Shown one piece after another: positions 40,574 through 63,800 of a stretch of 64,000 bases of DNA; the first letter of the stretch is position 1; each line of letters begins with the position of its first letter. The notes below the pieces were generated by a model. That model made no database searches. It had not been told where the DNA came from and saw only the letters and a program-made list of their open reading frames with translations. The DNA is taken from positions 190,154,001-190,218,000 of the forward strand of contig OZ024740.1 in NCBI GenBank assembly GCA_964016885.1. The letters run 5' to 3'. The position numbers were made by a program, and so were the translations under genes. Source of the DNA: Eledone cirrhosa (lineage: Eukaryota).

Positions 40574-40790
40574 AGTGGTGGAACACTGGAATGTAATATC
40601 CGTAGTGGTAGAGCACTCTATCCAAGGGACGAGTTAGGTAGAAGTGGTTACACAACATTTAGTTCATCACACCGAGAACAATTGTTTCACCACAGCGGAT
40701 CTTCAGCATGCCCATCCCAAGCTGAAGATCCGCTAAGGTGAAACAATTGTTCTCGGTATGGTGAACTAACTGTTGTGTAACCACTTCTAT
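40574..40790. mobile_element. Fold-back fragment of a hammerhead-bearing Penelope-type terminal repeat (family shared with 63522-63800)
   Basis: Arms 40638-40707 and 40721-40790 are reverse complements. Begins directly after (TA)n. Confidence 0.8.
40717..40756 (+). ncRNA. Type I hammerhead ribozyme motif
   Basis: ccaag-CTGAAGA-tCCgctaaGGt-GAAA-CAATTG-TT-ctcgg. The sister copy at 63619-63659 (minus) restores stem I CCGAG/CTCGG. Confidence 0.7.
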
Positions 40791-41092
40791 ATGTATGTTT
40801 TTTTTTTTGTTTTTTTTTCAACAGTTGTAAATTGAAAACTTGATTGTCACCACTGAATATGAACCTGAAGATGGCGAAAGCATGAAAGTACATTTCAATT
40901 AACATTTAACATTTAATATTCTACGATACTATTTCATTATAATATCGTTATAATTGTAAAGGATTCTAAATAAAACGAGTAAATCAGACAAAGTTGGAAT
41001 TCCTTTTATTAATATCATTTTCTATACGTAATCATACACACCCACGTATATTTATTTATTTATTCATATTAATAAATATATATATATATATA

Positions 41093-42060
41093 TTTCGTTT
41101 CTGAATTTGTTTAGCAAGATTCTTTATTTGAAAACGTGTGTTGAAACCGATAATGTTATAGTTTGGGATGGTCATGTTGCCAATAAGACACACACGAACC
41201 AGTTGCTTTCACTCCAATTTATTAGAAATTAAAAAATGTTTTAAAAAATTTATGAATTTCCGGTTTGTTGTTTGGTTCCTCAACCGGACAGTTGTTCATA
41301 TATTGTCAAGGTTCTTTCGTCACATATAATGTGACCTCTTCAGTGACTGCAGATTATTTTCTTTGTTTTGTGCCTCTCCTTTGTTCTGTCTTACGCCATC
41401 TTGTTTTTGTATGTGTTGTGTGCTTAGTTTGCGCATGTGTTACATCCGGATGTATGTGTGTGTGGGTGTGTGTGTGTGTGTGTGTGTGTGTATGTGTGTG
41501 TGTGTTTTTATTCGTTTATTTATTTATTTGTTTGTTTGTTTGTTCATTTACATGTTACTGGTTGGTTGTTTGTTCTATGTGTGTGTGTTTTCATTTTGTC
41601 CTTAATTATAAGTTGTGATGTTACTATTGCTTCATGTTTTCTATTTAATTTTGGTTGGAGTTCATTTATGTTTATTGACTCTGAGATTTCTCTAAACATT
41701 GCGCCTTTTCTGTGTGTAGATTTTATTTTTTTATTTCTATGTTCTCTAATTTGCCCTTATGTTCTATTTTAGCATGCTGGTGGAGTATTTATGATTCTTT
41801 TCTATCTTGAAGCTCTCAGCAGTCTTCATTTAACCGTTCTAATATACTACGAGCTGTCTCACCTATATGCACTATATTCTTATATTTACATTGTCCTTCA
41901 GTACATCTTATGCTATATACTATGTTTCTAGTTTTACAGTTAATATGGGGGCTTAGTTTATAGATTATGCATTTCTTATAATTTATAATAAATTGTAGTG
42001 AAAGTAACTGGTGCGTGTGTTTCTGATTGGCAACATGCCACTTCCAAGATATAACATTTA
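41093..42060 (-). mobile_element. Penelope-like 3' fragment (GIY-YIG plus pseudo-LTR) with short inverted end, between (TA)n tracts
   Basis: NIVYSIRCTEGQCKYKNIVHIGETARSILERLNE at 41816-41945. 41990-42060 is the reverse complement of 41151-41220. Same family as 60820-61376. Confidence 0.85.
41305..41347 (-). ncRNA. Hammerhead motif (cleavage-site U apparently mutated)
   Basis: gtca-CTGAAGA-gGTCACattatatGTGAC-GAAA-GAAC-CT-tgac. Confidence 0.6.
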
Positions 42061-42396
42061 ATATATATATATATATATATATATATATATATATATATAT
42101 ATATATATATATATATATATATATATATATATATATATACATACATTTATATATTTATACATACACAAAGTATAACAATATATATATATATATATATATA
42201 TATATATATATATCCATATATATATATATGTATATATATATGCATATATATATATATATATATACATATATATATATATATATATATATATATATATATA
42301 TACATATATATATACATATATGTATATATATATGTATATATATATATATAAATATATGTATATATATATGTATATATATATATATATGTGTGTGTG

Positions 42397-43011
42397 TCAC
42401 CAGTCAGGTCACCAGTTGGTGCTACTGGTAACATGTATCCCAGTACAACCTGTCTCATGGTCGGGTCGTTGGCGACTAAACTGTCAACCCCACCAAGGTT
42501 TCTTGGTGAGGAGGGTGACTTTGGACATCCTGCAGGACTAAAAACAAAACCTTTCAAAGGGAAAAGGAGCTCTTAAGAGCCAATGGCCATCCAAAATCAC
42601 CGGGAGAGATGACCCCTTAGCCTTTGTCAAAGCAGAATTCTAGGAGACGGAAAACTCTGATATAACACCTGCAACCCTGATGGTATCCAATGATGTTTTA
42701 CTTGTTCTTCTTTTTGGTAAATATCATCTTGGTTAAGAGAGTGGGACTGGCTTTGTGCAGTGCCTTTTCTCACTATAAAAGCTTCACGGCACAGGCATTG
42801 CTTTATATCTGGAGATCTTCCTGCACTTGTCAACACATGGTACCATGGGTCCAGCACTATGTGTCAATAATTGTCACAAGTGTAGTATTTGTACCAGAGT
42901 TTTCAAGTCGCTGGCTGGACTAAAAGGTCACGCTTGTTCAGCGCATCGGTAGGTCTCCTCCTACATGTATATAAAGTAGTGGCCGTACTCGAAAAGGAGT
43001 TGGCAGCCACC
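42397..43011. other. Unclassified moderately GC-rich insert between microsatellites, probably a retroelement UTR
   Basis: Composition differs sharply from the flanking (TA)n/(TG)n. No credible ORF. Confidence 0.3.
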
Positions 43012-43268
43012 ATGTATATATACATACATATATATATATATATATATATATATATATATTATATATATATATATATATATATATATTATATATATATATA
43101 TATATATATATATATATATATATATATATATATATATATATGTGAAGATAAACACAGAATATTCGAAAATATTCCGTATGTTTATAATAAACATTTTGAA
43201 GACCTAATCGCTATAGAATAGAATACGTCACGTATTACAATTTGAGATTCTCGATAAAAGCAAGGGAA

Positions 43269-43311
43269 GTAACCTACGCGTTTCATTCTTATTAGAAATC
43301 TTCAGGATTAC
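43269..43311 (-). ncRNA. Type I hammerhead ribozyme (312-bp unit, inverted arm)
   Basis: Reverse complement reads GTAATC-CTGAAGA-tTTCTaataAGAAt-GAAA-CGCG-TA-GGTTAC. Confidence 0.85.
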
Positions 43312-61166: not shown

Positions 61167-61398
61167 AATATATAAACAACCATATGCTTGTGGAACCAAT
61201 CAACCAACCGGAAATTTATAAATTCCTAAATTTATAAATTTATTATAATAAATTGAAGTGAAAGCATCTGCTGCGTGTGTTCTTATTGGCAACATGACAC
61301 TCCCAAAATATATCAATATCGGTTTCAACACACGTTTTCAGATAAAGAATCTTGCTAAACAAATTCAGAAACGAAATATATATATATATATATATATA

Positions 61399-61497
61399 TG
61401 GAGACGCATGACATGGTAGCGATAATGAGGGACAGAGACCGCTGGAGAGAACTTGTCCATGGATCTCGGGAATTTTACCCGCCTTAGATGGATAGAT
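61399..61497 (+). mobile_element. About 100-bp 3' tip of the RTE family, inserted in (TA)n
   Basis: Reverse complement of 37913-38025. Ends tagatggatagatata. Confidence 0.8.
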
Positions 61498-61992
61498 ATA
61501 TATATGTATATATAAATATACATATATATATATATATATATATATATATATATATATATATATATATATATATATATATATATATATAAATATATATATA
61601 TATATGAATATTTATATATATATAAATATGTATGTATATTTATATATATATATATATATATATATATATATGTATGTATATTTATATATGTATGTATATT
61701 TATATATATATATATATATATATATATATATATATATATATATATATATATATGTATATATGTATATATATATATATATATATATATATATATATATGTA
61801 TATATATATATATATATATAACTATATGTATATATATATATATATATATATATATATATATATATATGTATATATATATATATATATATATATATATATA
61901 TATATATATGTATGTATATATATATATATATATATATATATATATATATATATATATATATATATATATATATATATATATATATATATATA
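61498..61992. repeat. Long imperfect (TA)n microsatellite (representative of many such tracts at 28-64 kb)
   Basis: Direct sequence. Source of the spurious poly-IY ORFs. Confidence 0.95.
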
Positions 61993-62669
61993 TTACAATT
62001 GGTGCTCTGAAATAGTGATATATATATGAATGTATATATAGTGTATTTTGCAATACACTGTATGCTTAATTAAAAGCATTTCGAAAACCTTACGCTATTG
62101 TTTTAGAGTAGTGGCCGTCTCACTTACTTTAATTTTCAGCAAACAGCGAAGATAAAACTGACAGAGCTCTGTTTCACACTTTTTGGCACTTATCAAAGCT
62201 AAGTACTCCACCTGTCAGCTTTATCTCCCCTGTTTGCTGAAAATTAAAGTAAGTGAGACTGTCAATACTCTAAAACAATAGCCTAAGGTCTTTGAAATAC
62301 TTCTTAATTAAGCATACAGTTTATTGCAAAATACACTATATATACATTCATATATATATCGCTATTTCAGAGCACCAATTCTAATTTTCAATCTCTGCTT
62401 GACCGGCAACCGATCTGTATAATCAGTTCCTTATTATTACTAGAATTCTATAAGAATCAAACATTCATGATTTTCAGCAAACAGGCGGAGTACTTAGGTT
62501 TGATAAGCACCAACAAGTGCGAAACAGAGCTCTGTCAGCTTTATCTCCCCTGTTTGATAAAAGTTAAAGTAAGTGAGACTGTGACTACTCTAAAACAATA
62601 GCATAAGGTCTGCGAAATGCTTTTAATTAAGCATACAGTGTATTGCAATATACACTATATATACATTCA
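61992..62669. mobile_element. Inverted plus tandem element (unit 320 bp) related to the 312-bp family, in (TA)n
   Basis: ctgtcagctttatctcccc at 62212 and 62532. Left arm 61992-62209 is inverted. Shares atatatatcgctatttcagagca..aattctaattt..gacc..caaccg..cagttcct..attctataag with the 312-bp unit. Confidence 0.85.
62496..62540 (+). ncRNA. Hammerhead-like motif with variant core
   Basis: aggt-TTGATAA-GCACcaacaaGTGC-GAAA-CAGAGCTCTG-TC-agct. The inverted copy at 62156-62201 has the same TTGATAA core. Confidence 0.65.
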
Positions 62670-63521
62670 TATATATATATATATATATATATATATATAT
62701 ATATATATATATATATATATATATATATATATATATATATATATATATATATACATATATACATATATACATGAAATAGTGTATATATACTATCAAATGA
62801 TTCTATGGACATACTTTATAGTATATTGCTCTGATTATTTAATTTATTTATTCATCATTGAGCCACATTGTGAATGGTTGCCAAAACATATATATCTGTG
62901 ACTTTGTCTAGTTTGTGTATATGTAAATCTTTATATTTAATAATCTCCCATAATGTTGAGATGCAATTTGGGCAATATTGGGCTGCGGTCTCTAGCAAGC
63001 AGCCCACTCGCCGTAAGCAACAATCACATTCTTTTCGACTTGACCACTGCCACGTCAGAATTCTTAGCCATTTTGAATTCGTTTCTGACGGGGAACACTT
63101 AAGAAAAGAATCTTTCCTAACGAGTTTGTTTCGAGATGAGTTCAAAGCTCAAGGTTTTATCCTTAATAGGATATTTCCAAATGCGAACGAAACCCGAGGG
63201 TAGAAACATAATCCTGGTATGTGTATATGCATTTCTTCTAACTTTAATTTTATACCTAATTGTGTATGGTTGACTGTATACTTAATCGATTTCCACGTGC
63301 TGTTGAAATGTTGGGTAAACATTCTATGCCGCGAAGAGATTGCTGTCATTTATGTATCTACTATTTCTTCATAGGTGCCTTTTAATCTTATAGCCTGGTC
63401 GAATTGAATTTGTGTGTGGTAAATTATGCTAATTGTGAGAAGAAATGGTGTATATATATTATCAAATGATTCTATGGATATACTTTATAGTATATATATA
63501 TATATATATATATATATATAT

Positions 63522-63800
63522 AGTGGTGGAACACTGGAAGGCAATATCCGTAGCGGTAGAGCACTCAGTCAAGGGACGAGTTAGTTAGAATTGGTTACAC
63601 AACAGTTAGTTCACCACACCGAGAACAATTTTTTTCACCTTAGTGGATCTTCAGCTCGGAATGGGCATGGTTATAGGAACAGGAAGGACAACCGTGCGAA
63701 CGCGCATGCGCAGAAACCCGGCTACTTCATACAGGCAATACTAGACTGCGTTCGAGAGGTGTAAGGGAGATAACTGCGAACATCCGAAACGTTTTTAGGT
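63522..63800 (-). mobile_element. Terminal-repeat fragment of the 40574 family abutting (TA)n (right boundary uncertain)
   Basis: agtggtggaacactggaa...gatcttcagc matches 40574-40707 at the same (TA)n junction. Confidence 0.8.
63619..63659 (-). ncRNA. Hammerhead motif (stem III mutated)
   Basis: Reverse complement: CCGAG-CTGAAGA-tCCactaaGGt-GAAA-aaaattg-TT-CTCGG. Confidence 0.6.

Follow-up and report, generated by a model that had tools for sequence, protein, structure and literature searches.

Hammerhead-bearing ends of Penelope-like elements and tandem retrozyme units share an insertion footprint at (TA)n tracts in Eledone cirrhosa

The window analyzed here is a stretch of 64,000 nucleotides from Eledone cirrhosa (assembly GCA_964016885.1, contig OZ024740.1, positions 190,154,001 to 190,218,000), and between 40.6 and 63.7 kb it carries 18 predicted type I hammerhead ribozyme motifs that fall into eight sequence families, F1 to F8. 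This region is in all likelihood a nest of insertions into (TA)n tracts, in which four families are ends of Penelope-like elements (PLEs) and the other four are retrozymes without open reading frames (ORFs) that were inserted in trans by PLE enzymes. F1, F2, F6 and F8 are the 5'-truncated 3' ends of protein-coding PLEs. F3, F4, F5 and F7 are tandem units that, judged from their sequences, appear to fit the retrozymes without long terminal repeats (non-LTR retrozymes) already described. A first-pass annotation of the window had taken all of the motifs to be parts of non-autonomous mini-elements, a description that suits the second group and not the first. The insertions and their hammerhead cores are listed below; the labels Hydra-type (F1, F6) and Neptune-like (F2, F8) are putative and were assigned by protein motifs.

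40575..40789, opposed strands: F1, two 3' ends of a 2.5-kb Hydra-type PLE set back to back; cores 40706(-) and 40722(+)
40818..41052 (limits approximate), plus strand: F8, truncated 3' end of a Neptune-like PLE; core 40865(+)
41094..42058, minus strand: F2, 5'-truncated Neptune-like PLE with the GIY-YIG endonuclease end, 3' untranslated region (UTR) and a minimal hammerhead, 41343(-)
43142..44586, opposed strands: F3, 312-bp unit, an inverted arm (43142-43546) and 3.3 units on the plus strand; four hammerheads, 43305(-), 43765(+), 44077(+) and 44389(+)
51199..51839, plus strand: F4, 469-bp unit in 1.4 copies; hammerhead 51585(+)
51918..52126, opposed strands: F6, back-to-back 3' ends of a Hydra-type PLE of ~3.7 kb; complete hammerheads 52048(-) and 52067(+)
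52233..53239, opposed strands: F5, unit of ~430 bp (420-433) in two opposed arms; hammerheads 52531(-) and 52990(+)
60820..61375, opposed strands: F2, back-to-back pair of Neptune-like terminal repeats, short end left and long end right; hammerheads 61006(-) and 61128(+)
61994..62668, opposed strands: F7, 319-320-bp unit in two opposed arms; hammerheads 62196(-) and 62500(+)
63523..64000, minus strand: F1, 5'-truncated Hydra-type PLE; hammerhead 63654(-), with C15.2 lost

At the sequence level the motifs show the core, the three helices and the NUH site of a type I hammerhead. A descriptor built from these features gave nine matches between 40574 and 63800, against a mean of 0.03 (maximum 1) in 200 local dinucleotide shuffles, and cores were found at the places where the first-pass annotation had put hammerheads; the motif at 52068, which it had called a core only, is complete, with a stem I of 7-9 bp, a stem II of 4 bp, a stem III and GUA. 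F8, at 40865, is an addition to the families listed in that annotation. A stricter descriptor that required pairing of 10.1 with 11.1 gave only two matches and was dropped because it missed U-U and extra-base forms. Descriptor motifs are common genome-wide (11 matches in 20 stretches of 10 kb taken at even spacing from contigs C1 and C2, 0-1 in 10 shuffles), and the present region is ~7 times denser in them, not unique. When the 3.0-Gb genome was searched with exact patterns on the hammerhead alone, the matches, which are lower bounds, numbered 791 for F1, 1194 for F2, 2575 for F3, 1463 for F4, 11269 for F5, 9206 for F6 and 170 for F7, with none for the reversed control patterns. A chance origin of the motifs is ruled out by the shuffles and the reversed patterns, and an assembly artefact by the fixed ends of copies that are dispersed in their hundreds to thousands. 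A scan with Rfam catches one of the 18 motifs, below threshold (HH9 at 51567-51637, 31.8 bits for a gathering score of 52); its many microRNA matches were rejected as inverted repeats and TA runs.

Two of the designs depart from the canonical core in ways known from natural hammerheads (PMC3088659, PMC4209133). Stem II opens with a U-U mismatch (U10.1-U11.1) in F1, F3, F5, F6 and F8, and the core of F7 is of the U3-A8 form, which was present in 98 of the first 100 of its 170 matches though the pattern also admitted the canonical core. Elsewhere in the window, two more hammerhead-like cores, at 4991(+) and 11771(-), fail the helix test. At least five further hammerhead families were seen at loci L233, L237, L244, L101, L110, L152 and L281-L297, some with a very long stem II and two of them coding families with U3-A8 cores; (TA)n stands at the end of most of their printed copies.

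The evidence that ties the two groups together comes from their ends. For each of F1 to F7 we fetched 20 loci, mostly those first listed on contig C1; five F1 loci, one F2 locus, five F6 loci and a few of F5 and F7 were picked for paired or clustered matches, and seven F3 loci were taken from the best BLAST matches. In all seven families the 3' ends are bimodal and lie at two fixed positions downstream of the hammerhead, which are given here as nucleotides from C3.

F1: short end 68, long end 138
F2: short end 206, long end 264
F3: short end 172, long end 197-199
F4: short end 256-261, long end 330
F5: short end 251, long end 301-307
F6: short end 59-67, long end 128
F7: short end 179, long end 205

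One short and one long end were found in every one of the 33 two-armed loci (11 of PLE ends, 22 of ORF-less units), so that each consists of an inverted, 5'-truncated copy with a tail at one end only, as in the insertion pattern described for PLEs; for F8 the two-armed form was seen only in L225. In vitro, such a tail equals the spacing of two internal start sites that are used on both cut strands (PMC11167929). The enrichment of (TA)n at the ends, anticipated by the first-pass annotation, is borne out: a perfect (TA)5 starts no more than 6 nt from 120 of the 173 3' ends (139 by a looser rule), compared with 4.4% of 398,400 background positions, or 1.6% outside tracts, in a genome that is itself TA-rich (532 TA tracts in 200 kb). 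At the non-inverted 5' ends the count is 7 of 34. A preference for (TA)n has been reported for Hydra and Naiad elements (PMC8557442). Since coding PLEs and ORF-less units share this two-end footprint, the ORF-less units were likely copied by PLE enzymes.

F1, F2, F6 and F8 do not form short ORF-less tandem units; their solo or paired copies are continuous with coding sequence, and F1, F2 and F6 are listed mostly as single copies or opposed pairs. A same-strand ORF lies directly upstream in 11 of 20 F1 loci, in 15 of 20 F2 loci and, by the same strict test, in 1 of 20 F6 loci, and in 6 of 50 GIY-YIG loci F8 lies 354-407 nt beyond the stop of a Neptune-like ORF. The low count for F6 is due to its 3' UTR, which consists of ~1.4 kb of simple repeats: one locus (L168) holds a whole Hydra-type element, a second (L167) has the same ORF, and other copies have up to 1.4 kb of the UTR in common. 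The inserts had been described as mostly ORF-less, which is correct for the four tandem families and fails at 41.1-42.06 kb and 63.5-64 kb, where endonuclease sequence is present. The first of these matches a PLE 3' end over 965 bp and has (TA)n at both sides, besides a short inverted arm at 41978-42056; the second has endonuclease sequence with a CxCX5C linker from ~63900 to beyond the end of the window.

The parent elements can be recognized at other loci. In L091 and L106, F1 is represented by a repeat-ORF-repeat element of 2532 bp in which RWR and DKT motifs occur. F2 follows a 1041-codon frame with reverse transcriptase (RT) and GIY-YIG domains, the stop of which lies 315 nt ahead of the hammerhead (L117), and in L115 Pfam RVT_1 and GIY-YIG were both scored. 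The marks of the Hydra clade, namely an RWK-like motif (RWR), DKT, CxCX5C and a GIY-YIG at the C terminus, are present in the translations of L106, L168, L167 and L301; F1 also has the clade's length of under 3 kb (2532 bp), hammerhead in the terminal repeat and (TA)n target, and F6 has the hammerhead and the (TA)n target with a length of ~3.7 kb. F1 and F6 proteins are 41% identical. The Neptune marks (RT, C-terminal GIY-YIG and a CX2-5CxxC linker) occur in L117, L115 and L284, the clade of F2 being read from its CX4CxxC linker only. In all linked ORFs the endonuclease is C-terminal, which rules out a Naiad origin. Pfam returned nothing useful for the Hydra-type frames, as against RVT_1 and GIY-YIG in the Neptune-like ones, and a protein search with the F6 parent yielded 684 mostly unnamed relatives of ~700 residues without a gain in classification. 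The F1 hammerhead combines U10.1-U11.1 with a weak 2-bp stem II, a palindromic stem III and GUU. That of F2 resembles the minimal hammerheads of PLEs (PMC4209133) in its long stem II, an extra base ahead of 10.1 and the lack of a real stem III.

F3, F4, F5 and F7 are dispersed multi-copy families of short tandem units with a hammerhead in each unit, and in the loci sampled they show neither coding capacity nor a fixed link to an ORF. Their periods of 312, 469, 420-433 and 319-320 bp had been read correctly in the first pass, and genome matches run at 310/312 (F3), 469 (F4) and 420-453 bp (F5), with minus-strand units first and plus-strand units after. F3, which has (TA)n at both sides of 43142..44586, carries U10.1-U11.1 hammerheads with GUA, its short end falling at an internal (TA)4-5 and its long end 27 nt further; F4 has a canonical hammerhead (stem I 7 bp, stem II 5 bp, GUC), F5 has U10.1-U11.1 with GUA, and F7 joins its U3-A8 core to a long palindromic stem III and GUC. 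The first-pass annotation had noted motifs of at least six different sequences in the region; six or more independent inventions are not supported. Units of F3 and F7 are 68-74% alike, and those of F4 and F5 67%, so the four families appear by sequence to form two lineages, F3/F7 and F4/F5; sister units differ in core variant, stems and cleavage triplet.

It is unlikely that terminal repeats of coding PLEs account for every one of the eight families, with the ORF-less four descended from rare or lost parents and multiplied as truncated tandems. Such an origin draws on Xenopus, where 24 of 57 retrozyme families have a match among known elements, in nearly every case a PLE terminus (10.64898/2026.07.22.740005), and on the size of our sample, 20 loci per family and 50 of 10,597 GIY-YIG candidates. 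The same sampling, however, revealed the ORFs of F1 and F2 at once, and a same-strand PLE ORF adjoins 1 of the 80 loci of F3, F4, F5 and F7 (20 each). A link to an RT ORF, the possibility of which the first-pass annotation had raised for every family, thus exists for the four PLE-end families and not, as a fixed link in the loci sampled, for the tandem ones. Against truncated terminal repeats stand also the up to 28 head-to-tail units per locus without intervening sequence, and the DNA beyond 34 non-inverted 5' ends, which differs between loci (end-calling is noisy for F5 and F7). The single exception, L171, does join an F7 unit to a truncated PLE ORF: a truncated unit (3898-4148) and an incomplete Neptune-like ORF of the same strand are ~20 nt or less apart, without an intervening TA tract. 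This junction might be either an insertion into a relic or a template switch, which would point to the helper. An ancient origin of the ORF-less units from a PLE terminus may nevertheless be envisaged.

The opposed arms of one insert resemble each other more than they resemble other loci. Mean differences between units within an arm, between arms and between loci are 0.56, 0.17 and 2.35 for the 310-bp form of F3, 1.8, 1.3 and 6.2 for its 312-bp form, and 3.0, 2.8 and 10.6 for F4. With the divergent L223 left out, 21 locus-private variants are fixed in both arms (10 of 61 loci), compared with two that are arm-specific, which fits the copying of one unit RNA that was circular or reused. Unit variants alternate or recur within the arrays of L150 and L211, an order that suggests a dimeric template or a later higher-order expansion.

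The variants shared by arms bear on another explanation, by which the tandem families would be satellites that started as single PLE-like inserts and grew at the DNA level, by unequal crossover or gene conversion, with no need for RNA to be copied again and again. Higher-order or decayed structure in L211, L175 and the alternating units of L150 is in its favor, as are the absence of a significant editing signal (see below) and a discussion of local amplification in 10.64898/2026.07.22.740005. We consider it quite improbable, since crossover between tandem units does not produce private variants common to opposed arms, the two fixed outer ends are kept in 22 of 22 cases, and young, near-identical arrays are dispersed over many chromosomes. 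The further proposal of the first-pass annotation, that all families are independent non-autonomous ribozyme elements of an undescribed system served by neighboring relics, agrees with four families being non-autonomous, favoring (TA)n and keeping their fold with different sequences, and is very hard to uphold when four families are coding PLE ends, the other four form two lineages, the relics are broken with termini unrelated to the units and the concept is already published.

Conservation of the fold was examined in 33 hammerheads of F3, F4 and F5 (distinct copies of equal length) against 500 shuffles. The stem cells were paired in 91% of cases, compared with 73% in shuffles, and the covariation score was 0.52 compared with 0.19, a value reached by none of the 500 shuffles, slid controls giving at most 0.10. 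The stems thus covary, as the earlier view that the fold is kept while primary sequences differ would have it. One stem I position of F5 illustrates this, with G-U in 10, U-G in 10, A-U in 4 and C-G in 3 of 30 copies, 3 being unpaired. Folding of the tails gave paired hairpins for F4 and F5, and F4 is the one family that stands apart (z -2.3, against -0.6 to -1.7 for the rest).

Copying by PLE enzymes can be pictured as a series of steps, drawn from work on related systems (PMC11167929, PMC8557442, PMC7229834). The hammerheads would cut a tandem transcript into unit RNAs, acting in pairs if their stem III is a short palindrome, and the unit RNAs would probably be circularized. A PLE protein would cut both strands of a (TA)n tract, and each cut strand would prime reverse transcription at either of two internal sites, the distance from one to the other becoming the tail. 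Each arm would be extended until copying stopped, after several rounds of the unit in the ORF-less families, and the two 5' ends would then be joined head to head. Newer inserts would enter tracts beside older ones, whereby the cluster would grow.

A number of observations weigh against copying in trans by PLE enzymes. No empty target sites were seen, and the internal TA runs of F3, F5 and F7 could have seeded part of the flanking tract. The shared arm variants would be expected as well if a homogeneous master array had been copied, and the heterogeneity of the long arrays L211 and L175 implies that expansion at the DNA level, or decay, later added to them. An excess of A-to-G changes, such as an edited RNA stage would leave, is not significant (8 vs 4, p 0.25; 26 vs 16 sites, p 0.06); a strong signal obtained from per-locus counting of shared variants was lost once repeats were removed. 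The stem alignment spans three related families only, a kinship that inflates the result, and two pair-level measures do not beat shuffles (263 and 285 of 500). The monomers fold no better than shuffles (z -1.2 to +0.4), although unremarkable energies would be expected of weak or dimer-dependent motifs. BLAST found the F3, F4, F5 and F7 units to be unlike the termini of F1, F2 and F6, a simple-repeat patch aside, and equally unlike the terminal repeats of the relics at 30k, 34k and 45k in the window, which had been put forward as helpers. Nor is any unit the terminal repeat of an element in the 50 GIY-YIG loci examined. Finally, insertion by the PAc Poseidon element did not need hammerhead cleavage (PMC11167929), so that a need for cleavage in the present families is less safely assumed.

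Clues to the helpers come from layout. One Neptune-like family among the GIY-YIG loci combines a U3-A8 core with a tail of ~32 nt and a short end that falls at an internal (TA)n, and F3/F7 share this layout, with an internal (TA)n at the short end and a ~30-nt tail; the tails of F4/F5 measure 60-74 nt, like those of F1 and F6 and also of F2. Pairings of F3/F7 with Neptune-type and of F4/F5 with Hydra-type helpers are suggested on this basis. A search with the tail pattern of F3/F7 found only tandem arrays among 100 of 719 matches listed. We offer as a tentative extension that the two retrozyme lineages have long been independent, that no parent repeat of theirs survives, and that each exploits a different PLE clade through nothing but the shape of its RNA and the spacing of its ends. 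F3/F7 might conceivably use a Neptune-type family that has their internal TA run and 30-nt tail, and F4/F5, more speculatively than the general case for PLE copying, a long-tailed Hydra-type family, the hammerhead designs having been swapped with the fold kept. It is also possible, at a similarly modest level of expectation, that two reverse transcriptases roll round one RNA circle into both sides of a (TA)n break.

The closest known systems are the non-LTR retrozymes of animals, for which PLEs were proposed as likely helpers (Cervera and de la Pena 2020, PMC7229834), the retrozymes derived from PLE termini (Li, Clavereau and Pollet 2026, 10.64898/2026.07.22.740005) and the hammerheads in PLE termini (Cervera and de la Pena 2014, PMC4209133). 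Like the retrozymes of the first two reports, the present units are ORF-less tandems with a type I hammerhead, low GC, many families per genome and PLEs as proposed helpers, and their sizes (310-470 bp) lie within the reported 51-972 bp. They differ in that two-armed inserts with two fixed ends and (TA)n targets are found here, while 'inverted' and 'target site' do not occur in the text available of PMC7229834, and no mention of two-armed retrozyme inserts was found in the parts of the retrozyme literature examined. Circular RNA and cleavage were demonstrated for published metazoan retrozymes, while the present ones are known from sequence. No parent terminal repeat was found for them in the loci sampled, unlike the Xenopus families that match known elements.

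The parents of F1 and F6 resemble Hydra clade PLEs (Craig et al. 2021, PMC8557442) in having RWR for RWK, DKT and CxCX5C, as well as a C-terminal GIY-YIG, a canonical hammerhead and (TA)n targets. F1, at 2532 bp, compares with 2507 bp for Hydra-1_Obim, to which its ORF is close by eye; the hammerhead listed for Hydra-1_Obim differs from those of F1 and F6 in stems II and III, and these are therefore sibling families. The F6 parent departs from the clade in its length and long simple-repeat 3' UTR, and the F1/F6 tails measure 63-69 nt, not 30-40. U3-A8 cores have been reported for Schistosoma (PMC4209133), as in F7, where the core belongs by contrast to a tandem unit that is ORF-less and has a long stem III. 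In the in vitro system of PAc Poseidon (Frangieh et al. 2024, PMC11167929) AT-rich DNA was cut on both strands, and extension began at two internal start sites, which match the short and long ends described here; that element, unlike the units, is an autonomous one from a lizard and was tested on linear RNA.

Other elements lie nearby. At 44793-47983 there is a two-armed PLE-type insertion with a simple-repeat UTR and, by eye, a Hydra-like endonuclease end at ~46430-46560(-); in its terminal motif the latter half of a hammerhead core is retained, the first half being absent from all 9 printed copies (10 found), and its long end adjoins (CA)n in the window and in L119. A broken Neptune-like PLE at 30390-32552 has, by eye, a decayed minimal hammerhead near 30650(-), and back-to-back ends of its family lie at 49873-50182. 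The broken PLE at 33014-37060, with RT, a C-terminal GIY-YIG, a partial tandem and an inverted arm, has no canonical hammerhead behind its ORF. At 49135-49452(-) lie the remains of one more Hydra-type endonuclease, which shares 34% identity with the F6 parent. At 50549-50899 a near-perfect inverted repeat of 350 bp stands between TA tracts, with no hammerhead detected in it, and many of the fetched elements have its end next to them. A long interspersed nuclear element with RT and a zinc-knuckle end is present in three copies, 88% identical, at 53.7-56.3 kb, 6.5-8.7 kb and 23.5-25.7 kb, and two other broken non-LTR RT elements at 26.0-27.7 kb and 37.9-39.2 kb.

Retrozymes, their link to PLEs, (TA)n targeting and the core variants are already published, so that the system regarded as undescribed in the first pass is one already treated in PMC7229834, PMC4209133, PMC8557442 and 10.64898/2026.07.22.740005, and the families found here are new members of it. 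We found no description of these particular families, which subscription journals, Repbase, Dfam or preprint supplements may hold. A count of hammerheads in such a genome lumps PLE ends together with retrozymes, and Rfam overlooks nearly all of the motifs. The earlier case for PLE enzymes moving animal retrozymes was made from co-occurrence and, in frogs, from sequence likeness (PMC7229834, 10.64898/2026.07.22.740005). The presence in one genome of coding PLEs and gene-less units with the same footprint is direct genomic support for PLE-driven copying, and the exact RNA positions at which copying should start can now be named, which makes this step testable in vitro.

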